From contig NIVC01001267.1 of the NCBI GenBank assembly GCA_002269645.1, positions 124,001 to 188,000 on the forward strand: a stretch of 64,000 nt of DNA. The letters run 5' to 3'. Below, one piece after another: positions 20,250 through 47,323 of this stretch. The stretch comes from Macrostomum lignano (Eukaryota). The first letter of the stretch is position 1. The number at the start of each line of letters is the position of its first letter. The notes under the pieces were generated by a model. The model ran no database searches. It had not been told where the DNA came from and was given only the letters and a program-made list of their open reading frames with translations. A program made the position numbers and the translations under genes.

Positions 20250-21596
20250 GTAGACGGTCTTTAGACCAGAGACTAGGCTCGCCGATCCACTATCTCACGG
20301 CAAGCAGATCCCCACGCCTAGAAAATGTGTTGAATGGTGGGTGCAACACCTGCTGCTTCAATGCAGCTTTCATTTTTAATTAGCGTAGCAGCCCTGTATG
20401 CTCTGGCGTTTGTCCAGTCGCACAAGCTTTGCAGAGAACGTATTAAACTATTGCATTCGTGACTGCGATAACCAAAAAAATTGTCTATGGCGAGCATAGA
20501 GATTTCTGGATTTCTATGCTTGCAATATGTTCTTCTCATTTCAATACGCAGGGTGAATAAGATGAATATACGAGGCAATACCTGTCTATGGTAAAACTTT
20601 TGAATTCGGTTTGTCCATGGATGAAGGAATACACTGGATTGCTCATCTGAAATAGTCTATGGTCGAGTTCTTTCCTCCAAACTTGGAATTTACCCCCATA
20701 GGAAAGGCTGATGAAAGTTAAAAGTAATCTCCCGTAGGACTTGATTGGATGCTGAATCAGTCCATCAAATACATCTTTGGATTTCCCTCTAATTTTCAGC
20801 AGCTAGACATGCTTGTAGGTAGAAAAGCCTAAATAAAGCATCACGCTGTTGCCTGCGGACGTCTCACCGGCCCTGATCATTAATCACAAAGAGACTGGAA
20901 TGGGCGACCGGTCTGAGCCTTAACTGGTTTTGTTTTTTATTTAGTAGCGAGGGTTGAAATTACATCTCCTATTGCTGTCTGGGATAATCATCTTGGGGCA
21001 AGGATCTTCCTCCTTAACACTAAGGTTGAAGTGAAAATGAATGTTACCGACTTTAAACGACCACTGTTCGTTATCGGAGCAGTACATAACTATCAAGATG
21101 TCGATTATTAATATAGCTAGCTCTAGGTGCATAAAATTCCTAAATTATGAATGGAGGAATCTAGCACGCTGACGAGTGCGTCAATGGCTTTGACCATTGA
21201 CGCACATTGAAGCCATTGAAGCCATTGACGCACAAGTCAAAGTGCTTGATTCCCATTCTTATTTGATCCAACATGTGTGGCTAAAGTAGACAAGGGTGGT
21301 GCTGGGGGTGTGGAGTTTGACTTGAACCATAGACAAAATATGCGCGAGCTAGTCTGAACATTCTTGCACGATGTAAAGAAGATTATGCTTGTAGTCTATG
21401 GCTGTTTTTCTACTCGTAAATATAGAAACATTGCGCATTACATTCTTGCACGATTGACATTCCTGCACGGAGTGCACATGTAAATTCAAGGTGCTTTTAC
21501 CATAGACACTTGCATTTCTGCACGCATATGGCGACTTCCAAAGCATTCTTGAACGCTGGATCAAGAAAGAATTAATAATTATGGTCGCTCGGTGCA

Positions 21597-22280: not shown

Positions 22281-23079
22281 TGACGGAACAAAACGACAAA
22301 GGCAGAATAGAATAAATTAATGACACACAGCTCTCATTGAAAAGGAAACCTTATATGCACCCTTCTCTCTGCAGCTCGTCTGCTTTGATACATACTGCTA
22401 CAATATTCTATGAAAACACTCAAAGTCAAACTCACACCCCGATCTTCGAATTCCCCCTGACTGATTCAGCAGCCAGTCAAGTCATACGGGGAATTATTTT
22501 TAACTTTCATCAGCCAACAGGGGTAAATTCCAAGTTTGGAGGAAAGAACTCGACCATAGACTATTTCAGATGAGCAATCCAGTGTATTCCTTCATCCATG
22601 GTTTTGTAGATGTAAAGCTCTCACACCTATCCTGGCCTGCTTCTGGAAGTGGCTGGAAGCTATTTTTAGCAGACTCTGACAACTCGATCTGCTAGCCATA
22701 TGAGCTCGTGTATGTAGCTAGAATTATAATGCAAGCAACTTATACCGATATTTTCACCCCATCACACTACTTCCTACTGATGCCTACCAACGTTTCAATT
22801 TTTTGACAGCCCTATGAGAGGGAGTGGGGTGAAAACTTGATCTGGCAGAAGTTTTCAGCTTTTAAATCTATGGCAGCAGAGCTGCTACATGAGGCTATCG
22901 GGTGAGCAAAAATAGACGCGGGAGGCTAATGGTTAATTAAGAGTAAAAATACGTGACCGAATAATTCTACAATTTTCAAGTTTATCTGTGAGGGCATACC
23001 TAAAGGCTTCCTAATCAGCGCACCAGAAGCTCTTGGTCGTTAATGGGCCAACTTAGAGTTGGGATCTAGATAAACTTTA

Positions 23080-30557: not shown

Positions 30558-30685
30558 CCATGGATGAAGGAATAGAAATGATCGCTCATCTGAAAGCGAG
30601 TCTATGGCCAAGACTTCCTAAAAATTGGGATATCCTTCCATAAATTTCATTGGCTGCTTGAATTTAATAATACCCCCCCCCCAAT
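30558..30685. repeat. Dispersed repeat family (CATGGATGAAGGAATA...GCTCATCTGAAA..GTCTATGG)
   Basis: Related copies at ~20615-20700 (+), ~22545-22600 (-) and ~43090-43212 (-). Confidence 0.75.
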
Positions 30686-30745
30686 TTCTTAATGGCTGAA
30701 GCTTGTACGCGGGGGAAATTCACGATTAACGCGCATGCTAGGCTG

Positions 30746-31504
30746 TAGTATAGCATTTTGCAGCCCATTGGGGCTTATGCGCATTTAATTTAATCCAAGA
30801 TATGTTTGCCAATGCAACGGAGCTTTTGTCTATGGTAGCAAGGCTGGCACAGCGGCATTTAATTTGGTCCAACAAGCATCAATTTGGTCCAAACCCTCGT
30901 GAGTCATTGGACAAACCCTTGCTTTCTCGCAACCGTATGCAGGTTTTTGCGTACCGCTGGAATGTCAGCGTCTCTATCAACAATTTTCAGTTGCTTTTCC
31001 AGAGCTCTGCTGATAGTCGAAATCTGATAACTAACTGGAACTGTTCCTTCAACTTCTGCTGCATTTCTGCAACGTCAATAAAGGGTTCGTCTCAGCTGCA
31101 TCGAGTAGCACCAGTTGGATTTGCGGCTCTCGAGCAACTTGCCTTGGCGATTGCCACCCTTTCGCAGGCAATCTCTGCTGGCAAAGTTTCAACGCGCTGA
31201 TGGATGCTGTAAACCACCTTTTCTTTTACATTCAGCAACCTTACAATGTCCTTTGGGTGTTCACCTCTGTCAAGTGCTTCGATCACAAGCCAATGACATT
31301 TGTTCAACAGCCTAGCATATGGTCCACAATTCTGGGGCTGAGCTGTAAATGAACCAAATGGACCAAATTGATGCTTGTTGGACCAAAATAACTGCCGATG
31401 TGCCAGCCTTGCTACCATAGACAAAAGCTCCATTACTTTAGCAAACATATCTTAGATTAAATTCAATGCGCGTAAGCCCAAATGGGCTGCAAAAAGCTAT
31501 ACTA
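30746..31504 (-). mobile_element. Tc1/mariner-like deletion derivative with ~150-bp TIRs
   Basis: TAGTATAGCATTTTGCAGCCC...TTTGGTCCA is mirrored at 31360-31504; internal HTH-like remnant (VIEALDRGEHPKDIVRLLNV). Confidence 0.8.
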
Positions 31505-31777: not shown

Positions 31778-33089
31778 TTAGTCCTTGTTTACGAATGTGA
31801 TGGTAACCTTATTAGTGTCACCACAAGCCTCAATCCGCATTAGTTTGTGCGGTGTTCCTTGAACCACAGTAGTTTCACAGAAGTCCGTCCCGGTTGTAGC
31901 AGTACTGCCATCGGGTGTAGTCACAGTTGACATGGTCCTTGTACTGATCTCACGAGTTTGACTGTCGACTTGACCGCATAGAATTGCGCTTACGTTTTTC
32001 TGCTTCGTGATAGATGGCGAGATATAGCGCTCAAGGGCTTTAGAACTGGAATGGCCAGTAACTTTGGCGATGTCACTACGCTCAATTCCAGCCTCATGCA
32101 ACTCCGTGGCGCACATCTTTCGCAGACTTTGGTTGGTAAATCTAGAGCTCCCATTCGGACGAACCAGTGCTACAGCATCCTTCACCAGAGTAGAGAGTGT
32201 ATTCCTTCCAATCGGCGTGGACAGAAACCAAGATTTCCCAATATTTGATGTCCAGTGCTTGTTGGCAGCAAGCAACTTTGCAGTTTTCCGGGCGTAGAGA
32301 TGCATACTTCCGATAGATGCAAACAATACATTTGGTGCAATCCGCTGAATGGAACGCCCTCACCAGTTTTGGTTCCTTGTTCATACCTTTTAAGCCTCCT
32401 TGATTAGTCTTCGTTCTTCGGTTCTCCGCATAAACTAAACACTCATCTACTCCACGCCCTTCAATCCGAATTTCGCGTTCAAATTCCAGGTCCCTCAGTT
32501 CGGATCCACCTCGCAGTCCAAAATTCTTCCCAATCAGCCAGATAGTCGTGCGTACCAACTGCTCCGGAGACTCGACACCTAGAACGCCGTCTGACCACAG
32601 GTCCTCTTCAATGGTTGTCGACACGGGCTCTGCCTTCCTCAATCCAGCGCCCTTGCCCTCCGCAGTAGAAATCTTCATGGCCGCGTCCAAAGCCTTTCTG
32701 CTCTTTTCGAACTCGATGTCCGTCCAGATGCACCACTGACGGCGATACACATGGCGCATGTGGTACTGTATTGACGAAAAGAAATCCTTTAATGTCCCAG
32801 CGGAGTAGCGATCGTTCCTCTTTGTCCTGACCTCCAGAATGAAACTTATTAGAAAGTTCAAATCGGACTTCGAGAACTCATCTGCGTCTTTCAGTACCAT
32901 GAGCGCGGGTCCACCGTCGGAACACCAGAGTACTTTCTTCGCCGCATGCCACTCTTGGAAAGTAGCAAACATCCAGCGACATTTCTTTAGCGTGTTCGTT
33001 GGAACCTTTTCTTCGATTAGTGAACTGACTTCTTCGTCAGTCAGATTGACAAATCTTTCGGTAGCCATTTTAACTATACTGTCCGTCAA
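31778..33089 (-). pseudogene. Crypton (DUF3504-type) tyrosine recombinase, one frameshift near 32300
   Basis: N-terminus RFVNLTDEEV..KVPTNTLKK..W; catalytic box LIGKNFGLRGGSELRDL; TKTNQGGLK; W..STPIGRNTL; FTNQSLRKMCATEL..IAKVTGHSS..LERY. Confidence 0.92.
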
Positions 33090-33339: not shown

Positions 33340-34432
33340 CACACTTGCTGCCGGCACACAAAAAAAGATGGCGTCCTGAATTTAAACGGAAGAGTAATTC
33401 TCAATAGCGAGTCGCGCCGCCCTGTGCACGAATTACAGCTTCGCAGCGACTGCGCATCGAGTGGATGATGCGGCGCACCAGGTCTTGAGGAATCGCAGCC
33501 CATTCTTCGGCAATCGCTGGGGCCAACGCTGCGATATTAGGAATATTTCGCCTGGCCAGTCGTCTGCCCAGCTCATCCCAGATATGTTCTATCGGGTTCA
33601 AATCCGGGCTGTTGGCCGGCCAGTTCATGTGCACATACTGCACATGTGTGTCATGAAACTGCTGCACAATAGCACATCTGTGTGGCGTCGCATTGTCGTC
33701 CTGCAGCAGGAACCCCTGACCAACGCTCGCCAGCCCAAAGGGAACCGCAACATCACGTAGAACTGCTACGTACCTTGCGCCCGTCATGGTGCCGTCAATC
33801 ACTTCGACGAAGGACAGGTGGTTCCATGATGCTGCAGCCCAGACCATCACCGACCCGCCACTGCCACCGCGCCTCGATACCCACTGCACTGCGTCCTGTT
33901 GCTCGTAGCAAGAGTTGCGCTGGCGCCACACGCGAATTCTCCCATCATTCTAATGCACACAGAATCTGCTCTCGTCGGTGAACACCACCAGCCGCCACTG
34001 CTGTTGAGCCGACCAAAAGCGATGCTCGTGACACCACTGCAGCCGTGCGGCTCTGTGAGCTGCTGACAGAGCAGGGAACTTTAAACTTCGATAGCTGTCG
34101 AGTCCTGCGGCTCGAAGTCGACGGGAGATGGTGGACTGCGACACCGTGACATGCAAACGGTCGCTCAAATTTCTCTGCAATGTCGGCAGGCTCACGAAAG
34201 GGTCATTCCTGGCAATGTTTGCAACGAAGTTATTGCTGGCTGCATCCATCACACGAGGCCGTCCTGATTTCGGCAAGTTGTCAACAAAGCCACTGGTCGC
34301 AAATTTGGACGCGTAACGCTGCACAGTCGTCAGTGGCACGTCAAGATGAGCAGCGATTCGTTTCAGCGACCATCCGGCATCCTGTCGTAACGTCACAATT
34401 CTCCACCGCGTCTCAGTGCTAACAACCGGCAT
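33340..34432 (-). mobile_element. Tc1-family transposon, transposase with a single in-frame TAG; D-35-E spacing
   Basis: ORF 33950-34432 (HTH, VVFTDESRF) is in frame with 33401-33931 (QDDNATPH..WPANSPDLNPIEHIW). A TA-flanked end is likely at 33340; no matching 5' TIR was found. Confidence 0.92.
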
Positions 34433-34800
34433 TTTGCTAAGCTGGCTTGTTGACGTAGACCCTGTTTTTTACTCTCCCATGAAAGCTGACTGCACAAGAA
34501 TCCATAAGAGCCTGTTGATCAGGCTCCCATAAGCGCCTCAGTGCAGCCTTGCCAAGTCTCCAAATTTCATCAGCACGTCGACCACATGTGTCTGCATCAG
34601 TTAATTGCAGACGCAGTGCTAATTGGCGCACAGGGGTGTACTGAATACACTAGCGCTTATGGAAAAAATCCGGACTTCTGGCAGAACCGTCGAATATCTC
34701 GACGGTCCGGAGGGCTGGCGACTTGATTCTTGTTTGAGAAGGTGCGCAACAAAAAGTTAGCCATATCATTTGGCTTTCACGGCGGTAAACAGGCCGGATA

Positions 34801-34950
34801 ACTGCGGCAAAGCGCTATACATTGGTAACATATGAGTGCGGCAAAGCGGAGATAGAAGTGCGCAGAACTGCGGCAAAGCGCTATACATTGGTAACATATG
34901 AGTGCGGCAAAGCGGAGATAGAAGTGCGCAGAACTGCGGCAAAGCGGATA
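34801..34950 (+). repeat. 66-bp tandem repeat (2.3 copies) carrying five GCGGCAAAGCG motifs
   Basis: Unit starts at 34801, 34867 and 34933. Confidence 0.92.
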
Positions 34951-35397
34951 AAAACGGCAACTATAGAAGGAATTGTAAATATATACGTGGCAGAAATTTG
35001 GCAGCTAGTAAGTTAGGTAGCACAATTCACTGTTGGTGCCTAGCACAATGTCTATAAAAGTAGATATATATAGCTATGGGGAAGTTTCATTTGTTGCTAT
35101 ATCTGGCTAGCCTGTGTAGTATACGAGACATGCCTATCGCCTAATTAATCTATCAAATTGTTGTTAAAATAAAGCGGAGAAAACGGAGAACAGAGCATGG
35201 GCATAATAAAAGTGGCACAATATATATATATTAGACAAGCATTACAGGATTCAGTTTTCAGTTTACATTATTGCATTAACTATAACAATTTGTAGCAATT
35301 TAGCTAATCCAGGTAGCGCGCTTGCAGCATCAACTATGGCTATATAGTTATATATAGGCGGCGGCAAAACAATTATTACGACAAAGGGTCGCGCAAG

Positions 35398-35434
35398 AAA
35401 TTGTGCTTGGCACCTCCGGTGCCAGGCACAATTT
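35398..35434. other. 17-bp-arm hairpin AAATTGTGCTTGGCACC-TCC-GGTGCCAGGCACAATTT
   Basis: One G-T mismatch; the stem extends with GCGC/GCGC. It shares its core with the 15-bp inverted pair at 35035-35049 and 42788-42802. Confidence 0.9.
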
Positions 35435-35557
35435 CAAGCGCGCCCTAGATATAAATAATTGACAACTGATTGATTGAAATTTTTCTACCTGTCGCATTTC
35501 GACACAGAGGTCTGTTGCTTCTGCTATTGCGCTGCTGCTATTGCGTCACTCTGTCAA

Positions 35558-38306
35558 TTAGCCCCCCCCCCGCTTACATCCGGTGCATCTGGCTGGGCCA
35601 GACGTCGCCGCACTCGACTTCTTTTTCTTCTTCTGCTGCTGCTCCTGCATCAACGATAGCCTGGCTTCGGCGGCCGCTTTGCGCTTTGATTTGCATCGCA
35701 TCAGCTGTACTTCACCGTGCGTTACGGGCTGCGAGAACGACGGCACGAAGCAGACTTCAGTCGGCGTAGTTGCTGTCCTGGCGGCTGGACCGGATGCGGC
35801 ATTGGTGACGGCGGTGCACCTGCGTGTAGCTTTGGCTGCTGGCACGACTGCTGCTGCTGCTGCTGCTGTTGTTTTGCTGGTGGAGGCGGAGGAGGCCTTG
35901 GCAGTCGTCGAGGAGGAGGCGGCTCGCCGCGCGACAAGCTGGTCGACTGTGGCCTGAACATTAGTCCTGGTAACCAGCATGGCATTCGTCGCGTAGTGCC
36001 TCATCATCATAGGCACGGAATTCTCGAAAAGCGCGGCCACCTGATCGGCCATCTCTGGTCGGCCAGCCGCCGCTATGTCCTGCTTTGAGCTGCGAAAGAT
36101 GGTCGGGCAGACTCCGGCTCGACCTAGCAGGTGCTGGGCGTAGGCTGCAACAGAGTGGCTAAACGTCGAGACGGACAGCTTCTCGCCTCGCAGAGTGCAC
36201 AGGACGAACGGCGAGCTAGACACTGCGGGCAAGTCGCCTGCGGCGATGCAACTGCTGCGCCAGGCTAGCAGCAGGTCGATGAACGACGTCGGCAGTGTGA
36301 GGACGCTGCAGCCGACCGAGGCGATCTTCTTGTGGCTCACCTCGCGACCGGGAAGCCGGATGGTCGAATAGCCATTTTCCGCGTTGTCTCGGCGACAGGC
36401 GCTACCCGGCCGGATGTGCGCTACGCGGAGACCGCGCCACGGCCGAACGCGCAGCGGATGCATCGCGGTCGCGTGAAGAGCGAAGCGGTTGCGCATCGCA
36501 GTGAAGCCGGCGGCGCAGCCACGTCCGGCGGGCACGTCGGGGCCGGCGGAGACCAGCTCGGAGTAGTCGTCGAGAATTTTGCGCCACTCAACGGGGGTCA
36601 GCAGTCTGCATTGCTTCTTGTCGTGGTGCAACGGAGCGTCCAGCCGGCGTTCAAAGTCGTGCCGCTGCCTGACTGTTTTCAACCGCTTCTGTAGCAGGTT
36701 GCAACGGCTGTCAAAGTCGGCGGCAATCTCGGGCGGCAGCGCGAGGCGTTCGATTAGCGACTGCAGATGTTGTCGGTCGTGCACGATGTATGCCAACATG
36801 TACTGGGTACACCGAATCAGGGCCTGTGCCCGATTTCTAACCGTGCCAGAACTCTTGCTGGTGGCGCGAATCTCTGCGACGGCTGCTGACGGGTCGGCCA
36901 GACAGAACACCAAGTCCCGCTCGTGGAGGCCAACACCAGCCACCTCTGCCATCTTTGAACAAACGGACAATACGAGTGACAAGGTGTCAATCAGCGCTTC
37001 AGTGTGGCCGTCGTACTCGGGATTGCGGACGCCAGTCGAGTCATCCCAATGGAGCTCTTGCAGAACCTTCAGCTGAGCCAGCAGCGGTGCGTCGATGGGA
37101 TACTGTCGCAAAAGTTCGGAATTGCTGCGCAACTTGATGACGGCCAGAGCATCCCCCGCCGCGATCGCTGCCTTCACGGCCGCCGAGTCGCGGCTGGCAT
37201 TCGCCGCCGAGGCCGCCGAGGCCGCCGAGTCGCAGCTGGCATTCGCCGCCGAGGCCGCCGAGTCGCAGCTGGCATTCGCCGCCGAGGCCGCCGAGTCGCA
37301 GCTGGCATTCGCCGCCGAGGCCGCCGAGTCGCAGCTGGCATTCGCCGCCGAGGCCGCCGAGTCGCAGCTGGCATTCGCCGCCGAGGCCGCCGAGTCGCAG
37401 CTGGCATTCGCCGCCGAGGCCGCCGAGTCGCAGCTGGCATTCGCCGCCGAGGCCGCCGAGTCGCAGCTGGCATTCGCCGCCGAGGCCGCCGAGTCGCAGC
37501 TGGCATTCGCCGCCGAGGCCGCCGAGTCGCAGCTGGCATTCGCCGCCGAGGCCGTCGAGTCGCAGCTGGCATTCGCCGCCGAGTCGCAGCTGGCATCCGC
37601 CGCCGAGTCGCAGCTGGCATCCGCCGCCAAGGCCGCCGAGTCGCGGCTGCTGCTGCTGCTGCCTTTGGCAAGAGGCGCCAAGGAATCGGCTGTATGCAGT
37701 TATGGATGGATGGTGTGCGAAAATGAAGTCACGGGTGAGCTTTTGAAAGCAATGTGCTCCAATTTTAGATTGACAGCGACTCATACCTGCTGGCTTTTTA
37801 GCGTGCTTTGCTGCGTGCTTTGTCGTATCTCTATAAAAGCACTTGCAGTCGGCGCAGTACTGTTCCCGTCGGCGAGCACGATTTGCTGCCTGTTGCTCAA
37901 CAGCCACAGAGTCTGCCGCAGGTCGCAGGGTGGAAAGTCGCCAAAGCCAGGACGTACGCCTTTCCAAAGACCAGCCGTCCTCGTTGGCACTGTCGATATG
38001 CTGTTGCTTGATCCAGTCTTTATGCCGCGCAGCAAAATGCCTCTTCAGCGTGTCTCCACGCATCTGGGCGGTGCAGCCCGGAACAGGGCACTGCTTGGCA
38101 TATTTTTTGTTGCGATCGGTTGCTGCGGCACTCGTGCCTCTGACTGTCGCTGAACCCGCCGCTGCCGCTTCCGCGCCTCTGGCCGACGCCGCCGAACTTG
38201 CCGCTGCCGCTGCCGGGCTGCTGTCCAGCAGGCAAGTCAAAGGGCCGTCGCCATCGCCGCTGCTGGCCAGCGCTGGACTGTCCGCGGCCGCTGCTACTGT
38301 GTACAA
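35558..38306 (-). CDS. C2H2 zinc finger - Ala/Ser repeat - tyrosine recombinase fusion, ~883 aa; exons 38306-37787 and 37689-35558
   Basis: Phase-1 intron G|GTATGA...ACTGCATACAG|CC joins the two ORFs in frame. ZnFs: CPVPGC..TLKRHFAARH and CADC..KHAAKH. YR-like order: RNRF..HPLRVR..GLRVAHI (R), SHKK (K), PTIFR (R), ALFENS, MRHY (Y). Confidence 0.75.
37190..37640 (-). repeat. 33-bp coding minisatellite (DSAASAANASC)n, ~10 copies
   Basis: Frame-preserving repeat inside the recombinase gene. Confidence 0.95.
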
Positions 38307-39847
38307 TGGGTGTTAGATGGCATGGCAACCCATCAATCAATCAATCAAACAATCAATCAATGTAGTGAATAGAGTCTTAAATATCGGATCGGATGACGCA
38401 GTTTCGCCTCACCTCCAATCGATGCTGAAATCATAAATTCGCTGCTACTTGAACTATCGTCTTGGGCCTCTTCCTCGTCGTAGCCGAACAAGAGCCGGAG
38501 GTACTTTCCGAAGGACATCATCAGGCGATGGAATAAATAAAGAAAACGGATTTTGGACCTGATCACTCTTTGCAATTGTTTACAGTGAAAAATGGAAGGG
38601 AAGAGCCATAGACTGTTGACTGACTTTATACAAAGAAGCGAAGAGTTAGCCATCCAAATCCCGGCTATCCCCCCTCCTCATAGACTAATCTCACCGGGCA
38701 TGTACTCTGCTGTTGTCTATGGATTTTTGTTGTCTATGGTTGTATATGTTGACTATCGATTTTTTTGACTGTGTTCCTTAACCCAGCCCCCACCCCCGCA
38801 TGCATCAGTGCCCCACACTCTCTTTCTCCCTCTATCCAAAAAGCAATTTTAGCCAGCCACCCCGATTTTCCTACCCCCGCCCTCTGTAAAGCCGAATGGT
38901 CATAGGGCACTGCATATTATGCAAGGCAAAAGAAAATAATACACGCAACTATTTCTGCTGTTCAATAAAAAGCACCAAAGCGATATAGACGTATTGATGA
39001 ATATATATATATCTACCCCCCCCCCCTAATATAGTAGACAGACATAATATTATAGAGTAAATATCAATGAGAGAATATTGTGGCCCAAATATGTTGCCAA
39101 AAAAGCGCATTTGCCCTGTAGATAGAAAATGTTTTCGACTAAAGATATATAAATTACGGATGCAGCACCATTACTAAGTTGCTCAATAGGAAGCAGCTGA
39201 TCGAGATGGAAAAAAAGCTGTTTGGTTTGGTTTGGTATACAATAGCGAAGAAGCGGCGAAATATTTAAATAACGGTTGCTTAGGCGGCCCCATCTGGCGC
39301 ACAGAAGCGACAAAAAATGCACATCGAACTCCTTAGAAACAAAACCAACACTGCAGTTGCATTCAGCCAGCCAGGCTGAGATCACGTCGATTTCCAAACG
39401 ACGACGAAACAAACTGAAAAACAAACACACACAAACACTGGAACACGAGAACAGGTGTACCTTTCTGCCTGCAGCACAACCTCGGTACCTGCATCGCATC
39501 GCCTCAACAAAGTAGGGGAAGTAAGGGCCAAAGAGAGAGGGAGAGAGAGAGAAGGGGAAAGAGGATAGAAGGGATAGAAGATAGAGAAGAAACAAAGGTA
39601 AGTGTGGGCAATGTGCATCTGACGTGCTGCAGCAGCTCACTAAATTGTTGCAGCAGTACTGCAGCCCCTAACGACTGGCCCACCTCCGCCGCCGGCACAA
39701 TAACGATAATGTCCTCCATCCATCCATCCATCCATCAATCAATCAATCAATCAGTGTTTCTATTCAACAATAGTAGGCTGCTTCGCGTTCTTCTTCTTCT
39801 TCTTCTTCGGCGACGGCGGCGGCATCGTCGGCAAACAGCCGCTCCTG

Positions 39848-42576
39848 CTACTGCGGCGGTGGCGGTGGCGGCGGCGGCATCTGCTGCTGCTGCTGCTGCT
39901 GCACATTTTTCTTCGCCGCCTGCGACGCCGCATCTTGGCGTCCTCTGCCGCTGCGACCTTGACTGGCGTCGCACCCGTCGCAGTCGAACAGATTATGCGG
40001 GATGTGCACGACTGCAGTCATCCTGCGCAAGAAGTCCCGACTGATCTGCCCTGGGGCCGCGTGGCCCGCCACAACAATGGCGTGTGGCCATGGCTCTTTT
40101 TTGTGGCTTTGATATTTCTCATTGATCGTGAACTTATCACGGTTGAACAGTAGCAGCAGTTGACCCGGAATTGGACGGCTGGCATCGAATTCATCGACAA
40201 AAATGCACTTATGCAAGTTAAAGCGCAGCCCGTCGAAAGGAAAACTTGTTGTCAAGTCCGGCACGAACACAGGCTCCCTGCCAAAGTGCAGGTGCACCAT
40301 GGCCGTCTTGCCAACTCCGGAAGGCCCCCACAAATATATTGTGGGCGGCGGCATCTCCCTCTGCATGGCGCGGCACACGGCTATCTGTACGTCGCACAGA
40401 CCGCTGCCCAGGTGCGTCACCACAAGTTCGTCTGGCAGCGGCGGTGGCGGCTGCGGCTGCTGCTGCGACACCCTCTGGCTGCCGCCGTTGCTGCGGCGGC
40501 GACACGCGTCCTCCGACGAAGAAGAAGGACCGGAACAGGCGGCGAAAGTGGCGGCGGCGGCGGCGGCGGCGCTACTACGGAACGACACTGGCGGCCGCTC
40601 GCAGACACCGCACAGTGCCTTCTGCTGCTGGCCGCCGAGCCTGACGAACCCCGAGAGCGCCTCTGCCCTCATCCGACGCAGAAGTTGAATGTTGTTGAAG
40701 TAGTCTAAAGACTGCTTTGTCAACATCGGATTGCCCGCGTTTAGCACGGGGTCGTCAAGATCCGGCTGCACCGCCTCGACCGGATACGACATCGCCCAAC
40801 GATAGAGTACGATGGTGCGCGACAAGCAGCTGTCATCGATATTAATTGTGCAGCATACCGGGTCAAGCGCAGTTATCCGGCGCAGCTCGGCTTCGACGCT
40901 GCGGACGCTCCTGATCTCGACTTGCGTCCAGCGGCGCACAGCAAAGGTGTCCGCGTCGCGGCCTGACGCGAAAATCGGACGCAGCTGCCCGACCAAGTCG
41001 CAATTAGTGTGGAGGACGGCGGTGCGGACAAATGCGTGAATGCTTGACGTCTCCCGACTAACATCGTCGGTCAGGGGCGCATATGGATCGACAATGTGCG
41101 TCTTGGATGGCTCGAACTCATTCTTAGTGACGCCTATTTTTTGACATTGTTTTTTGTGTGTTGATCGTCGAGTTGAGAAATTAGATGCAGAAGAAGAAGA
41201 CGGCGCAATATTATTCAGAAATGGGATGATGCAGAGAGAGAGAGAGGGGGCGGAGGCGCGCGACAGATGAGGATTGTGGGGGAAGAGGGATTATACGATT
41301 ATGGCAGTGTTGCAGTCGTGGCAATTCAATAAATGGCATTGATATATCATTAATTGTGATATTCATATAGTCTATGGCAATAGTTTGGCAAATCAGCGCT
41401 GTCGATCGCGCATAGGAGCTGCACAGAAATGATATAAAAAGAAAAGAACAGCAATGCTTAATAAAGTAAGTAGATAAATAGGAAAGGGCAACAACCCCAC
41501 GCTACTCACTGATGGCCAGTTGAGTCGCCCATTCACTCCAGGCTGACATTAACATCATCTTGAGCGCGCCAGGTTGCTTCACGTAGGCTATCCTGAGCAC
41601 AGACATGCCGCGGTAGGCCCGCCGATTCGCCAGCTGTCCATTGCTGCCTGCAACGGAGGCGTCTACGGCATCCTCGGGGTGCAGCAGAATGCGAGGCACG
41701 AGCAGCCTGGACGTGGTGTCCCGTGTCGGCTGCGGCTGCTGATGATGCTGGTGAGCAGCAGCCGTCTCGTAGGAGGCGGCCGCGGCGCTCCATTCGTCGG
41801 TATATCCGCCGCAGTAATAAGGTGGCGGCGGAGGCGGCGGCGGCGGCGGCGGCGGCGGCGGCTGCGAAGACCGAGTGTCCGACGGGATAGAACAGCCTGT
41901 CGTCAAAGTGGACGATTGGTGGTGGTTGTTGTGAACAATGACAAATAATTTCACAATATGGGTAATGAGCTATGAACTAAAAGTGTAAGGATCGATGGTC
42001 AACAACGAATGCTCAGCAACTGAGCAGCAGCATTCAACGACTCCTACCTGGCGATAGGATCGAACTGCTGCGACTGCAGGGCGACGATGGCAGCGCGTTC
42101 GCCGCCGTTATCGGGCGTTGACAATGGCGCTTTGGCGGTGTCGGCCCTTGTTGCTGCTTAGCGGCGCTTAGCGACGCGGCCGTGCCACTTCGGGATACGA
42201 AGCAGCGACTCGTTATCGCCGGCTTGATGCCAGCTGACCCGATTCTCGGCTGTCGTTTTAGTTCCGGCTTTGCAGCGACTGCAGCCGCTGTCTCCTGATG
42301 ATGCTGCTGCTGACTCTGCTGTTCAGTCTTGAATAATGGCAGGCGACCACTTGCCTCGTCGTCTTCGTCGCTGTCTGGTACGAAGACCCCAGTGATGACG
42401 CAATCAGCCTGCTCATCCGCCGCCTCCAGCGTGAAGAGGTCGGCCTCTAGTGCAGCCCGCTCCGCGTCTTCTTGCCGCTTTGGAACAGTCGATGGGGCCG
42501 CGGCCGCGGCGGCGGCGGCGGCCGCGGCTTCAGCAGCGTCAACCTGCTCGCAGGCTTCCAGGAGGACGGCCGCCAT
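39848..42576 (-). CDS. Rep-like protein with SF3 helicase, ~733 aa; exons 42576-42048, 41896-41510, 41133-39848
   Basis: Two phase-1 introns (G|GTAGGA..GACGACAG|GC and A|GTGAGT..AAAATAG|GC) join the frames without stops. Walker A WGPSGVGKT, Walker B IFVDEF, B' LLLLFNRDKFTINEKY, motif C IVVAGH, Arg finger FLRRM. The true start may lie further upstream. Confidence 0.8.
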
Positions 42577-42779
42577 CTCGTCCGCGGTTGCGTATTGGCT
42601 ATCGCCGGGCCATGGAGGACTTGCATCTTTTATATTTTATTATCGTAATCAGCTGCTCGCTGGCTGCTGGATGCTCGCTGCAGCTAACAACGGTCGGACG
42701 CGCGCGTGGGCAATAATGCAGAAAAAATGAATGAGCAGCCCAGCCGTATACTATAGCTACCGGGTTAATATATATATCT

Positions 42780-42975
42780 CTAGTAAGATTGTGCTAGGCA
42801 CCGCCGCCTCTGCCGCCGCTTTGAGCTTTTTGTCTATGGTCCATCCGCAGCATATATATATCTTTAAAAGAATTGTGCTAGGCACAATCCGCTTTGCCAC
42901 AGTGCGCACTGCATCCGCTTTACCGCATCCGCTTTACCGCATCCGCTGTACCGCAATTGCTAATTGCTTTACCGT
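42780..42975. other. Right-end motif array of the Rep-YR element
   Basis: ATTGTGCTAGGCAC occurs twice (42788, 42872), each preceded by a TATATATATCT box, followed by CCGCTTT(G/A)CC repeats, which are the reverse complement of the left-end motif. Confidence 0.8.
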
Positions 42976-44677
42976 AGCGCAAGATAGCCCGTGTTCTTGA
43001 ATCTCGTGTGCCTGCGTTGCTCCGTTCCGGCGCAGCAAAAAAATTTGGGAAATTCCCCCCCTCTTGGTAGTTCTACTGTTAAGAACTTAGGGGGGGGCTA
43101 TTATTAAATTCAAGCAGCCAATGAAATTCATGGGGGAATATCCCAATTTTTAGGAAGCCTTGGCCATAGACTCGCTTTCAGATGAGCGATCATTTCTATT
43201 CCTCCATCCATGATGCAGTCCCCATTTTAATTATATTGGCTGGGTGAGTCTATAAATATTTACCCCGATTCAACTTTATTGGTTTTCGCTTGAACGCGAG
43301 GGAAGTCTAAATCAGTTCCTTTTAAGTTTTTTTTTCGTGGGAAAGACTAGGAATTTACGACGTATTTATAGTCCCACTAACCCTACAGCCTAAACAGATG
43401 ACTTGCCCATCTAAAAGAATATAAGATCTATGGTTGATTGACACAAGTAGTGTTTTTAAAATCGGTGATACAACCTTTATTGAAGTTTATTTTTTAGATT
43501 TAACTTAAGCTAAACTTAAACAAACAACGAAAAAGAAAAAGTTATTTTCTTATTTTTAAAGATAATTGGGGAACACGCAATGGAAAGTTTTTGATAGGAA
43601 CCAGAATGGGGGTTGTAGCAACTCCATAGTCGACAGCTGTACTCATAAAACGACCATTAAGCAACCACATAGAAAGAGAGGAGCGCAACTTCATTCCGAA
43701 AAACATCTCTGCATCTCTGCTGTGAATGCCAGCGTTGTGAACATGTAAAATGGTACAATTCTGGGGCTGCCAAAAACCGGCTGCAGAATAGACGGTTCGA
43801 TGAGCCCTAGCAGATCTGTAGCCCTGCCGGTGCTACGGTTTAGAATCTTCGGGGCTCCGGCCAGTTTTGTATCGCTGACTCGCCGATCTGGAGACTGCAA
43901 ACGGGCTACGATCGCCGACCGGAGATCTTAAAGGGTGTAAGATCTCCTTTGGAGACTACAAACGGTTATGGGTCCGTTTTGGGATCTCCGGGGCATGATT
44001 GGGTCTCATCTGGAGATCCTAGATTCTGTTGTACCTTCGGAGATTCTGCACCGTTTCCCGATCTCCTTCACGAGTGCAAAAACTAATGTTTGATTTAGAA
44101 TTTCCGGCTACCGATTTACCCAATTTTTAAAGAAATTATAATCTTTCTATTTTGTATAGTATTGTGTATGCGCTTCTCGCTTGGGGTTGTCTTAAGGCGG
44201 CCTGGCAGGTCTTTAAATCTCATGGCTGGCACCTATGTTGTATCTGTGGTTGAGGTTGTGCTAGCACAGGGCTCTTAGGTTGTCTCAGGCTCTCTCTTGC
44301 CAGAAGCCTACTTATCAGTAGCGTTGGTAGTTGCTGTCACCAGTCCCTTCGGATCTCAGCCTTCGGTGAGGTGAAGATCCCGTCGGAACGAAATAACAAA
44401 GACAAGCGAACACAGCACTTCAGGCAGATTAGCGATTTCAGACTAATAGTCAGCAGATCCTGTCGGGCTCAGTGGGTCGGCTGGGAGGACGGTGTTAGCC
44501 TCAGAGCAGAATCAGAGGTCTTAGTTTAGGATGAGAACTGAGTCAGGACAATGGGAGAAATAGGGCAATTGCAGAACTGCGTTTACTGAGAGAGAACAGA
44601 GCTAAAGAAATGACCGAAATGGCCGACCGAACAATTGCGCTGCGGTCAGGCCCGCACTGCCACTCTAACGGACTGCC

Positions 44678-45301
44678 TCATCGCAGGCGCTTGACCTGAC
44701 CCCTCAGACTGCTGCTGCCTGCCCCTCCCGCCTGTTCTGCGAGCGCATGCGCGAAAGGGGCCTCCCTTCTGCGTCTTAATATAAAGAAATGAAGCGAACT
44801 GAACTGAGCTGATCTGAACCAAGGCATGAGGGGGGCTCGCATATATAGAGAGGAAATATTGCACCATCGAAAACAAGACCCCCGCTGCGGGTCATTGATG
44901 GCTCTGTTGCTATTTTTAGCAACTGGCGCACGGGTTTTGTCCAGAGGAGGAAGGGGTCTGGTCTGGGTGCACGTGATTTCCCCCACAAACACGGGCCTAA
45001 CGCACAATGATGAAATGACAGCTGCGCGTCGCCCCGGGTCGTTGTCTATATAATCGAAGATATATTTGACGCACTCGACGATTGCGTCAGCTCGGTTGCG
45101 TGCCGTTCCTAGCTCTCTGACGAGGACCGGACCTCTAGCAGCCTGCCTGGGATCCGTCAACCAGAATGAGTCATCGCGAAAGCCGGCGCTTGGGTTCATT
45201 CTGGCGAACGCCGTCATCTCCAAATTGTACGTCAACTGCCATTCCTTTCGGAAATCAGCGTCCTGCCGGCCGCGAATACCGGTCTCCTCGTCGAAGAACA
45301 T
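44678..45301 (-). CDS. Orphan ORF of unknown function downstream of the second Rep-like copy
   Basis: 207 aa; the first ~110 aa have globular-looking composition; no family recognised. Confidence 0.35.
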   Translation of the reverse strand: MFFDEETGIRGRQDADFRKEWQLTYNLEMTAFARMNPSAGFRDDSFWLTDPRQAARGPVLVRELGTARNRADAIVECVKYIFDYIDNDPGRRAAVISSLCVRPVFVGEITCTQTRPLPPLDKTRAPVAKNSNRAINDPQRGSCFRWCNISSLYMRAPLMPWFRSAQFSSLHFFILRRRREAPFAHALAEQAGGAGSSSLRGQVKRLR

Positions 45302-45717
45302 ATCTTCAATATGGCTAGCTGTTTGGCCACCGCCTTGCCGTAAACCGCGGCGTCCAGTTTGTCTACTGCAGCATTTTGCTGATGCTGCTTAGGCTGACTA
45401 AATGCTGCCGCTTCGAACTCAGTCGCCTCTGCCACCGCCACCGCTTCGACCGTAGCCGCCGCAACCACTGCAGACGCTGCCAAAGATGACGACTTTCGCT
45501 GCTGCTGATGCTGCCGACGCCGTTTGGTTCGGGCGACACTTTCACCGTTGCCGTCGTCAGCAGCAGCTTCGGCCGCATGCAGCTTGCTGTGATAGTCGAC
45601 ATACTATGATAGTCTGCGCAGATGAGGTCAAAACGGGGATGCGCTTGCTCGCGGACAGGCTCAGCAAGACTGTAGCGCCTCGACCACCACTCGGTTCCAC
45701 CCTCCAGTTTCGACTAA

Positions 45718-47323
45718 TCAATCGATGCGTACAGACTGTCTGCCGCTGCGGGTTCTTTTGCAGCGCCCCCTCGACGCGTGTACTTGCTGCAACTCATCGA
45801 AGAATAGACAGCAATGGATACCGAGCTTCAGTCCGTCGAATGGGAAAGTCTCCGATAAGTCGGGAGTGTACACTGTCTCGCGGCCGAAGTGTATTGCGAC
45901 CATAGCGGACTTCCCAACGCCGCTTGGTCCCCAGAGATACAATATAGCCGGAGCTACACGTGCCTGCCGCATTGAGGCGCAAAGCTCGCGCTGGACTGCC
46001 CTGCCGCCACCCAGCACTACGCGGTTCGCGCTAATGTTGCTGCGCGAGGTATCTGCTGCGGCAGCAGCCGCGGTCGATGCCACTACCGGAGGCAGCTTGC
46101 AAACACCGCACAAACTCGGTCGAACCAGGGTGGACGGCAGTGGGCTAATGCCCAACTCCTCGGCCGGTATCTGGTGCATCATCTGCACTGAGGAAAAATA
46201 CTCAAGTCTGTCGCATCAGCAGCGGGTTGCCCACAGACCAACTGTGGATCGTCTGGCCGAGGGGTCACAATGCCCAACGGGAGGACATGGCCCATCTGTA
46301 GAGCACGACGTTGCGAGACAGGCAGCTATCATCGATGTCCATCGTTGCAGCTGCGGGATCGCTCATAGTGACGCGCCTGATCTCAGCCTGGCCGGATCGC
46401 ACACTGCGAATTTCGGCGCGCGTCCAGCCCATCACGGCGAAGGTGTGCTCGCTGGAGCCGGAGCCAAACAGTGCGCTCAGCCGACCGATCAGGTCAAGGG
46501 TGTTGTGCAGCGCGTTGGTGAGAATGAACACCAACAAGGATCTGGTGCCTTTAATTAGGCAAGAAGCAGTCGGGGCGTAAAGATCCATCATAAGCGTGTG
46601 ACGCGACAAAATCATTGTCTGCCAAGCCTATGCATTATTAGATTTACATAAAGAAGCGGCAAAGCGAGTTTTTACTTACCAATCGCAAACTGAGTAGCGT
46701 ATCTCCTTCTCAATGCGCTATCCAGCATCATCTTCATCTGCGAAGCGTTTCGCACATATGCCATCTGGACTATGGACATTGCACGGAAGGCTCGGCGACT
46801 CGCGTCAGCAGTAGCGGTGACACCGGCGGACAGGGGCTCTGCTGGGTGCAGCGGTACGCCCGGTGTCAGGAGCCGCGATGTCGTGCACTTCGGTTGCTAC
46901 GAAACCGGAATAGTCGCCTCGTAGGCAGCCGCAGCCATTGAATAGTCTGCCGGCTTAGCCTTGTCTGTGTTTGGTAATAGTAATTTATACTTTGACAAGT
47001 TGCCATACAGATGTAGCCCATATTTCGCAATACTTAAAGCTATATCACATTCACAAAACAATAGTTCAAAGTCGATTTTGTATTTTATGCATGCATGTAG
47101 ACCTACCGGCGATGGTGGCGGCGGTGGAAGACGATGTTCTCGCTGCTGCTGGCTAACGCCACCTCGGTGAAGAGATGCTTGACGTCGATGGGGATGCCAT
47201 CAGAGGTGATAGTTTAAACGGCAGCGGCCGCTGCGAAGCGATTGGGTGTAACAGTCTTGGCTGCAGCGGCATCCCCGCCTTCTTTATGGTGCTTTGGCCA
47301 ACAACGTCAGTCATTTTTTCCAT
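45718..47323 (-). pseudogene. Divergent paralog of the Rep-like SF3 gene; exons 47323-47107, 46964-46680, 46627-~45718
   Basis: TTSRLL.P..LHP; SRRAFRAMSIVQMAYVR..MKMML..ATQFAI; EIRSVRS..EIRRVT..DP; DIDDSCLSR.VVLYRWAMS; LCGVC..PPV; LYLWGPSGVGKSAMV.IHFGRE..PDL..FPFDGL..FFDEL. Premature stops and frameshifts; homology is lost after Walker B. Confidence 0.88.

Follow-up and report, generated by a model that had tools for sequence, protein, structure and literature searches.

What do the mirrored motif clusters in this part of an animal genome delimit, and which proteins would read them? A preliminary description of the 64-kb stretch of Macrostomum lignano DNA analyzed here (the window) had proposed that arrays, a repeated module and a hairpin on one side are mirrored about 8 kb away, forming a symmetric set of binding sites at the ends of a mobile element rather than a contiguous terminal inverted repeat (TIR). 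We found that the inward-facing array is indeed mirrored: with at most one mismatch allowed, GCGGYAAAGCGG is matched 10 times in 64 kb where 0.51 matches would be expected, and 9 of these 10 lie at the ends, five on the plus strand at 34804-34947 and four on the minus strand at 42889-42954, with a single match elsewhere at 46656. All six window matches to GTGCCNRGCACAAT fall within the two ends (0.25 expected). The proposed 15-bp inverted partner is exact, with GGTGCCTAGCACAAT at 35035-35049 being the inverse of 42788-42802, and it is the longest exact word common to the left end and the reversed right end; none of 2000 shuffles reached 15 (maximum 14), and 5 of 1936 random real window pairs did so because the window is repeat-rich. 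A contiguous TIR was rejected, as this longest exact inverted match of 15 bp stands at unequal distances from the two ends.

The left array, GCGG(C/T)AAAGCG(G) on the plus strand at 34782-34947, begins with a degenerate copy at 34782 and continues with five copies at 34804, 34838, 34870, 34904, and 34936; these stem largely from a 66-bp tandem duplication and thus do not represent five independent events. The right array, GCGG(T/C)AAAGCGG on the minus strand at 42889-42974, has copies at 42889, 42915, 42929, and 42943 and a degenerate one at approximately 42963-42974, mostly reading GCGGTAAAGCGG with a 14-bp period, so that the spacing of sites is unequal between the two sides (32/34 bp on the left versus 14 bp on the right). 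Contig depth over the 66-bp unit (34800-34946), relative to the neighboring contig, was 3.0x in public run X6 and 2.3x in run X1, a weak hint of length variation in the left array.

A second class of motif, the GTGCCnRGCACAAT–AGATATA module, also faces inward at both ends. As had been described, it occurs twice per side: the composite with AGATATA(T/A)ATA is found four times in the window, two per end. The spacer, put at N10-14 in the preliminary description, needs widening to N8-14, since the actual spacers are 12 and 14 on the left and 8 and 8 on the right. On the plus strand, module L1 (35018-35072) contains two copies of TAGCACAAT 23 bp apart and GTGCCTAGCACAAT-N12-AGATATATATA, and module L2 (35385-35457) consists of a 62-nt hairpin built of two tail-to-tail GTGCCnRGCACAAT motifs, then N14 and AGATATAAATA. 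On the minus strand, module R1 (42768-42802) reads GGTGCCTAGCACAAT-N8-AGATATATATA, and module R2 (42852-42888) is a perfect palindrome, ATTGTGC-TAG-GCACAAT, followed by N8 and AGATATATATA. The hexamer ATTGTG/CACAAT occurs 8 times in the 958 bp of the ends, 7 times in the 7,269 bp inside and 31 times in the 55,773 bp outside; the hairpin and the palindrome contain it in inverted pairs, and every module ends in a TA tract. The composite end motif had no matches in viral contigs.

The hairpin at 35385-35446 has a folding energy of -30.1 kcal/mol (z -10.2), and none of 200 shuffles folded equally well. It is not mirrored, contrary to what had been proposed: the right end has only the perfect 17-bp palindrome at 42872-42888. 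The hairpin core (35404-35435) recurs at a second locus, found in contigs of runs X1, X6, and X9, where it is enclosed by a different but self-complementary outer stem, GGCAGAT/ATCTGCC. That this outer stem differs and yet pairs indicates that pairing or symmetry has been kept, which supports a kept function. The second locus also has a 2x2 internal loop of TT/TT versus AA/AA in the window, with the same apical loop; read from the letters of this one example, the difference hints that the hairpin may flip. In X9 we observed a 59-nt skip across the hairpin, which fits folding of a single strand. An intron was rejected as an explanation of this skip, which has AC..GC ends and a 6-nt microhomology. 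A match of the hairpin to Rfam mir-1271 was likewise set aside as that of a generic hairpin (31.5 bits against a cut-off of 80.5).

To what extent of DNA do these motifs belong? We are highly confident that the interval 34754-42986 of this animal genome is a mobile DNA element of 8.2 kb, and the motifs lie just inside both of its ends; the true ends are further out than the preliminary description had placed them. The DNA on either side is a high-copy host repeat, whose left half lies at 34724-34753 and whose right half lies at 42987-43047 (both on the plus strand). In X6, the summed contig depth of the stretch 42981-43047 is 146,752, versus 85 in the adjoining flank, and the loose ends preceding 42981 match window positions 34724-34753 in 16 contigs of X6 and 11 contigs of X2. 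Because these letters precede other copies of the repeat, the element is seen to split it, and the flanks fit together again apart from a 6-bp word that is present twice. This word forms a direct repeat, AAG(T/A)TA, at both ends (AAGTTA at 34754-34759 and AAGATA at 42981-42986, plus strand, with one mismatch between the left and right core), which is likely the crossover overlap and which the preliminary description had overlooked. Most copies of the host repeat, which is extremely abundant, end in TTGTCAGGGGGG, followed by variable sequence.

Other flanks were found at the same junctions. On the left side, X6 and X1 each have one contig that joins a different upstream flank at 34754; on the right side, contigs of X6 and X2 break off precisely at 42986, and in X16 a spliced contig runs on from 42986 for 64 letters into other sequence. 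Since different flanks join at the element junctions, the element has moved and has occupied more than one insertion site. Together, the rejoining flanks, the 6-bp direct repeat and the alternative flanks bear out the proposal that these are mobile-element ends and not a contiguous TIR. The junctions were probably made by a recombinase. Compared with the usual core-site pattern of tyrosine recombinases (11-13-bp inverted repeats around a 6-8-bp spacer), the 6-bp core is present and the flank symmetry is weak, with inverted repeats beside the core agreeing at approximately 5 of 13 positions by eye.

These observations come from contigs of four public runs mapped to the right part (37700-43400) and from contigs of X6, X1, X16, and X9 on the left end (34748-35600). 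At 85% likeness, the left end drew 5 contigs in X6, 5 in X1, 0 in X16 and 3 in X9, and such low numbers indicate that the left end is not a common genome-wide repeat, although the short motifs alone are not resolvable by such mapping. Nor is the end sequence missing from the copy with a different left flank, which keeps it. The zero count in X16 is uninformative on expression. Where long contigs cover the element, they depart from the window by 0-1 letter per 1-2 kb, and the element appears young and low-copy. Neither of the two junctions in the window is bridged by any of the listed contigs, so that the insertion may be peculiar to the assembled line or may have been lost by the assembler. 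Similarly, we found no circle junction or end-to-end joint among the left-end contigs, where assembled contigs drop rare forms and where, with the two halves of the element mapped separately, such a joint would be visible only as a loose end. A branch point of X6 and X2 contigs lies at 39217-39246, and the right (Rep) half has approximately 1.6x the depth of the left (recombinase) half, depth being no measure of copy number; the branch is possibly a variant with the right half only. A single X9 contig runs unbroken across 37700-39707.

The element carries two genes, both on the minus strand. The left one is a predicted 916-amino acid zinc-finger/tyrosine-recombinase-like gene (35558-38521; predicted exons 38521-38413, 38296-37787, and 37689-35558) with a frame open over GT-AG introns. 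It has two C2H2-like fingers, at 38090 and 37856, and an R/K/R/N/Y motif series at 36457-35990 that reads by eye R..K..TxxR..N-x8-Y, with T and N at the positions of the two His residues in the superfamily pattern R-K-H-R-H/W-Y. Bacterial type IB topoisomerases offer a precedent for Asn at the second His position. The ESM Atlas matches the protein to a eukaryote cluster (0.98) and to another cluster, with 15% Phage_integrase (0.96); HMM and BLAST searches returned no match in Pfam, PHROGs, NCBIfam, PDB sequences, phages or plasmids, and BLASTP found none to the recombinase of a neighboring Crypton. A single-sequence structure model (pLDDT 37) was too poor for fold comparison. Judging from the ESM Atlas scores and the motif series, the left gene probably encodes a tyrosine recombinase. 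The first finger has R, D, T, and R at helix positions -1, 2, 3, and 6, which by the C2H2 code presumably specifies G(C/T)G, and the left and right arrays contain both GCG and GTG forms. Between the zinc fingers and the recombinase core lies a near-perfect 33-bp coding tandem repeat (37113-37682) that encodes an Ala/Ser/Cys-rich 11-mer.

The right one is a 733-amino acid Rep-like gene (39848-42576; exons 42576-42048, 41896-41510, and 41133-39848) that comprises a putatively HUH-derived domain, a Cys-rich linker and an SF3 helicase with Walker A at 40327 and Walker B at 40204. Its frames are open across GT-AG introns, and the first intron is spliced in the X16 contig. Modeling of the last exon gave papillomavirus E1 as the top fold match, with AAV Rep and PCV2 Rep in the first 11 PDB rows, and matched CRESS Reps in BFVD; the best PDB match of the family profile was a Replication-associated protein (E 0.00076). 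The structure model thereby confirms an SF3 helicase fold for the predicted C-terminal part, and the helicase motifs are intact. An exhaustive search yielded 18 relatives, the best being a Macrostomum lignano protein and the weaker ones including classical CRESS Reps, with 11 of the 18 scoring above the first classical Rep. Word-based protein searches gave no matches. Related loci were found neither in viral contigs (for the recombinase-like protein, the Rep or the Rep relative P0014) nor in metagenome contigs (for alignment A4 or P0004).

The N-terminal part of the Rep-like protein is rather likely to have originated from a HUH nuclease domain that is now dead, as alignment with relatives suggests. 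Relative P0014, which falls with the family in the helicase tree, has both HUH and YITK intact. In alignment A2, its catalytic Y stands opposite R, R, and W, and its K opposite A, M, and S, in three family members (the window protein, the second window copy of the family and P0005), so that the window protein reads R-I-T-A at the YxxK position in a register of moderate confidence; the HUH positions read S-I-H, S-L-L, and E-I-H in a manual register from which the MAFFT placement of the His differs. The top ESM Atlas rows for this part are CRESS Viral_Rep/Gemini_AL1 clusters (0.86-0.89), which we take as a lead only. BLASTP and hhalign comparisons of the N-terminal part with intact Reps were not significant, in searches where the positive control P0014 failed too, and the structure model has a pLDDT under 50 here. 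In the helicase tree, the family together with P0013, P0014, P0017, and P0018 stands apart from three classical Reps (100/100), and the Rep family appears as one clade in 26% of bootstrap trees. The family also has conserved Cys motifs before the helicase (40612-40385) and an HxxxxCxGC tail after it (39982), which are perhaps zinc sites. Large T has a zinc site before its helicase.

A second, broken member of the Rep family lies at 44680-47300, with 36-45% identity, the same intron position, frame changes and stops. This second Rep gene (approximately 45790-46900, 3 kb downstream) has no recombinase beside it and no end motifs or arrays nearby. Together with the branch at 39217-39246, it indicates that the Rep can occur without the recombinase, and the pairing of recombinase and helicase is thus shown in one family only. 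After it follows a 207-amino acid ORF (44678-45301) for which Pfam, PHROGs, NCBIfam and PDB gave no match. By eye, we found no credible capsid gene among the ORFs of the element (a 196-amino acid low-complexity ORF at 39050-39640 was left out); the two genes fill the 8.2 kb, leaving no room or ORF for a major capsid protein and a packaging ATPase.

How might these parts work together? We propose that the recombinase excises and integrates the element as a circle via the end motifs and that the helicase likely copies this circle, a proposal that we consider evenly balanced as a whole; the replication of the circle, taken by itself, is about an even call too. The recombinase would exchange strands within the AAG(T/A)TA core, and the excised element would have its right end joined to its left, leaving the GCGG arrays divergent, head-to-head, approximately 12 and 22 bp from the core. 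There they would serve as arm sites of the recombinase, a role for which they are placed as expected and to which the G(C/T)G preference of the first finger would fit. Apparently without the first HUH His and the YxxK Tyr, the Rep-like protein would act in the manner of papillomavirus E1 or SV40 large T. After binding to the inverted ATTGTG/CACAAT pairs of the hairpin and the 17-bp palindrome, it would melt the neighboring AGATATATATA tract, and theta replication with host polymerases would then raise the copy number before reinsertion. The apparent absence of nicking residues from the Rep-like domain, as judged from its alignment, argues against the plain rolling-circle iteron reading. Assigning each motif class to its protein is arguably the weakest step of this proposal.

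The two assignments may be exchanged, with the GCGG repeats being Rep iterons that excision assembles into an origin like that of staphylococcal pathogenicity islands (SaPIs), and the GTGC-nnn-GCAC palindromes and the hairpin being recombinase or accessory sites. Opposed iteron sets are a conserved feature of SaPI origins, the arrays would stand head-to-head only on the circle, and tyrosine recombinases bind inverted repeats, GTGCCTAGCAC being a quasi-palindrome. However, the stretch between the two arrays on the hypothetical circle is approximately 50% AT and thus not AT-rich, the palindromic modules are approximately 100-660 bp away from the crossover core, to which the GCGG arrays are adjacent, and the finger helix, by the C2H2 code, fits G(C/T)G. 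We therefore consider this exchange of sites unlikely.

Replication could also be dispensed with altogether. The element would then move by Crypton-like cut-and-paste through a non-replicating circle, with the arrays as arms, the helicase as cargo or a recombination helper, and the CACAAT-TATA modules as promoters. R1 and R2 point into the Rep gene approximately 190-310 bp upstream of its ATG, and AGATATATA is also found approximately 480 bp upstream of the recombinase gene on the sense strand of that gene, which fits a promoter; a Rep relative without a recombinase and the low copy number agree with this reading. Yet L1 and L2 face the 3' end of a gene on the minus strand, with no plus-strand gene that they could drive. 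The spliced X16 contig starts beyond 42986 and so outside the element, the helicase has its motifs intact, and the hairpin core has been kept at another locus. On this evidence, we hold cut-and-paste without replication to be distinctly unlikely.

We judge it highly improbable that the hairpin itself is the origin, either for rolling-circle or rolling-hairpin replication (nicked by an intact HUH protein in trans or by an enzyme with the recombinase fold) or as the telomere-resolution site of a linear hairpin-ended replicon. Protelomerases share the tyrosine-recombinase fold, the hairpin is strong, and the TT/TT versus AA/AA loop at the second locus is what a flip isomer would show, in one example; hairpins are also general in HUH elements, according to the accessible text of PMC10288648. 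Against this, the element's own Rep apparently has no catalytic Tyr, the hairpin lies approximately 630 bp inside the end with the junctions elsewhere, and no opposite-strand joint at the hairpin was found among the left-end contigs. Finally, two adjacent or nested elements (one Rep-only and one recombinase-only) or an assembly chimera, with end symmetry by chance, would account for the branch, the uneven depth of the halves and the want of a bridging contig among those listed, but are barely credible given that both genes lie within a single clean insertion with a 6-bp duplication, that both motif classes are common to both ends and that the X9 contig is unbroken over 37700-39707.

We compared the element, under our preferred reading of a recombinase-excised and helicase-copied circle, with known systems. 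Cryptons have 4-6-bp terminal direct repeats that are regarded as recombination substrates (PMC3212892, accessible text), and a circular intermediate has been proposed for them (PMC3212892 and PMC13565253, accessible text), with Crypton-type recombination described in the available part of the latter as not demonstrated experimentally. The element resembles them as a eukaryotic tyrosine-recombinase element with introns and 6-bp direct repeats at both ends and without a TIR. It differs in that its recombinase matches neither DUF3504 nor Phage_integrase, both of which are matched by the true Crypton nearby, and departs from the Crypton R-H-R-Y type, with no Pfam family matched and T and N at the His positions. 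It also has zinc fingers, inward-facing subterminal arrays and an SF3 helicase gene, and the accessible text of PMC3212892 on Cryptons makes no mention of 'helicase'.

Staphylococcal pathogenicity islands carry an integrase. Their origins consist of opposed iterons bound by an SF3 initiator (PMC9371898, accessible text), so that the likeness of the element to SaPIs and related phage-inducible islands (PICIs), as far as these are described there, is one of working only: an integrase with a self-loading SF3 initiator-helicase and opposed short iterons. A bacterial host, winged-helix origin recognition, a primase and phage-dependent packaging, as given in that text, set the islands apart; the island origin is described as one block beside rep, whereas the arrays of the element are split between its ends. 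The opposed iterons of the islands surround an AT-rich center, and the arrays of the element would come to oppose each other on a circle, with approximately 50% AT between them. By analogy, the junctions would work most like those of a Crypton, and the whole element most like a staphylococcal pathogenicity island.

With CRESS viruses and the PEVE/PIVE elements of planarians, in the descriptions accessible to us, the element shares a CRESS-type SF3 helicase, a likely HUH-derived N-terminus, a hairpin and a flatworm host. It differs from CRESS viruses in having no capsid gene, in the apparent loss of the HUH His and YxxK Tyr, and in its spliceosomal introns and recombinase gene. Rep-bearing transposons of fungi and animals and the planarian PEVE/PIVE are described without a recombinase in the available part of PMC3198968, and the term 'recombinase' is absent from the accessible texts of PMC3198968 and PMC6668415. 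According to the latter, E1 and large T are initiators made of an inactivated HUH domain and SF3. E1 binds at inverted pairs of hexamers that match ATTGTT imperfectly, and an AT-rich stretch flanks the core origin of SV40 (PMC1779811, accessible text). On these partial descriptions, the element resembles papillomavirus E1 and polyomavirus large T in its SF3 domain, its apparently inactivated HUH domain and its short inverted sites beside an AT tract (ATTGTG versus ATTGTT). Sequence kinship with them is seen only in the SF3 fold, the nuclease loss would be independent, and papillomaviruses and polyomaviruses have capsids and no recombinase.

Replitrons, as far as the accessible text of PMC10288648 describes them, are likewise eukaryotic transposons that encode a CRESS-like HUH protein and have a hairpin and short direct repeats at their termini, but they keep the catalytic Tyr and are without a helicase or a described recombinase, whereas the element has a helicase and apparently no such Tyr. 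Mobility by a tyrosine recombinase through a circle has been shown for Starships (10.64898/2026.09.21.753150, accessible text); these share the circle-based mobility and differ as giant fungal elements for which that text names no replication gene. The recombinases of polisuviruses are found together with PolA or AEP, and circovirus-like Reps occur in one group (10.64898/2026.10.13.758929, accessible text). Polisuviruses pair a recombinase with a replicase, as the element likely does, but have capsid genes in the description available. The element falls outside the Cryptons, Replitrons, CRESS viruses and polinton-like viruses.

We found no such element in the literature searched by titles and abstract openings, a search that did not extend to Repbase and most subscription journals. 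A cycle of excision as a circle, copying of that circle and reinsertion is known from bacterial islands, and we found no description of it in animals. In that searchable literature, no small integrating elements of animals are known that have their own replication initiator but neither capsid nor polymerase. We tentatively suggest, as a possibility somewhat short of probable, that the element is the first known representative of a group not yet described, namely integrative elements of animals that replicate themselves and have no capsid. In these, a CRESS Rep that independently lost its nickase would have become a theta initiator paired with a zinc-finger tyrosine recombinase, and the end arrays would come together as a hub for recombination and replication only once the element has been excised. 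Other eukaryote-like metagenome and Logan records also contain the helicase family with these residues lost, and such a group may therefore be wide. If true, this would show how a tyrosine-recombinase element multiplies even though cut-and-paste alone adds no copies, and it would be a second independent switch from nickase to origin-binding domain, as behind the initiators of papillomaviruses and polyomaviruses. The exact ends, the 6-bp core and the two motif classes make Crypton-type recombination directly testable, and the element points to a compact, animal-adapted site-specific recombinase.

The element lies in a nest of other repeats. An unrelated Crypton-type gene in two frames (31778-33089; DUF3504, E 2e-15; QRICH1; Phage_integrase, E 1e-7) ends 1.7 kb from its left end, and a Tc1/mariner transposase gene, also in two frames (33401-34432; HTH_Tnp_Tc3_2, DDE_3), lies between them, with no matching TIR pair found for it. 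The whole 12.6-kb nest is bracketed by inverted 134-bp matches (93%) at 30559-30692 and 43079-43212, which belong to a high-copy TIR-like family also present at 20613 (20615-20762 and 22459-22601). A smaller inverted pair is found at 30746-30891 and 31359-31504.
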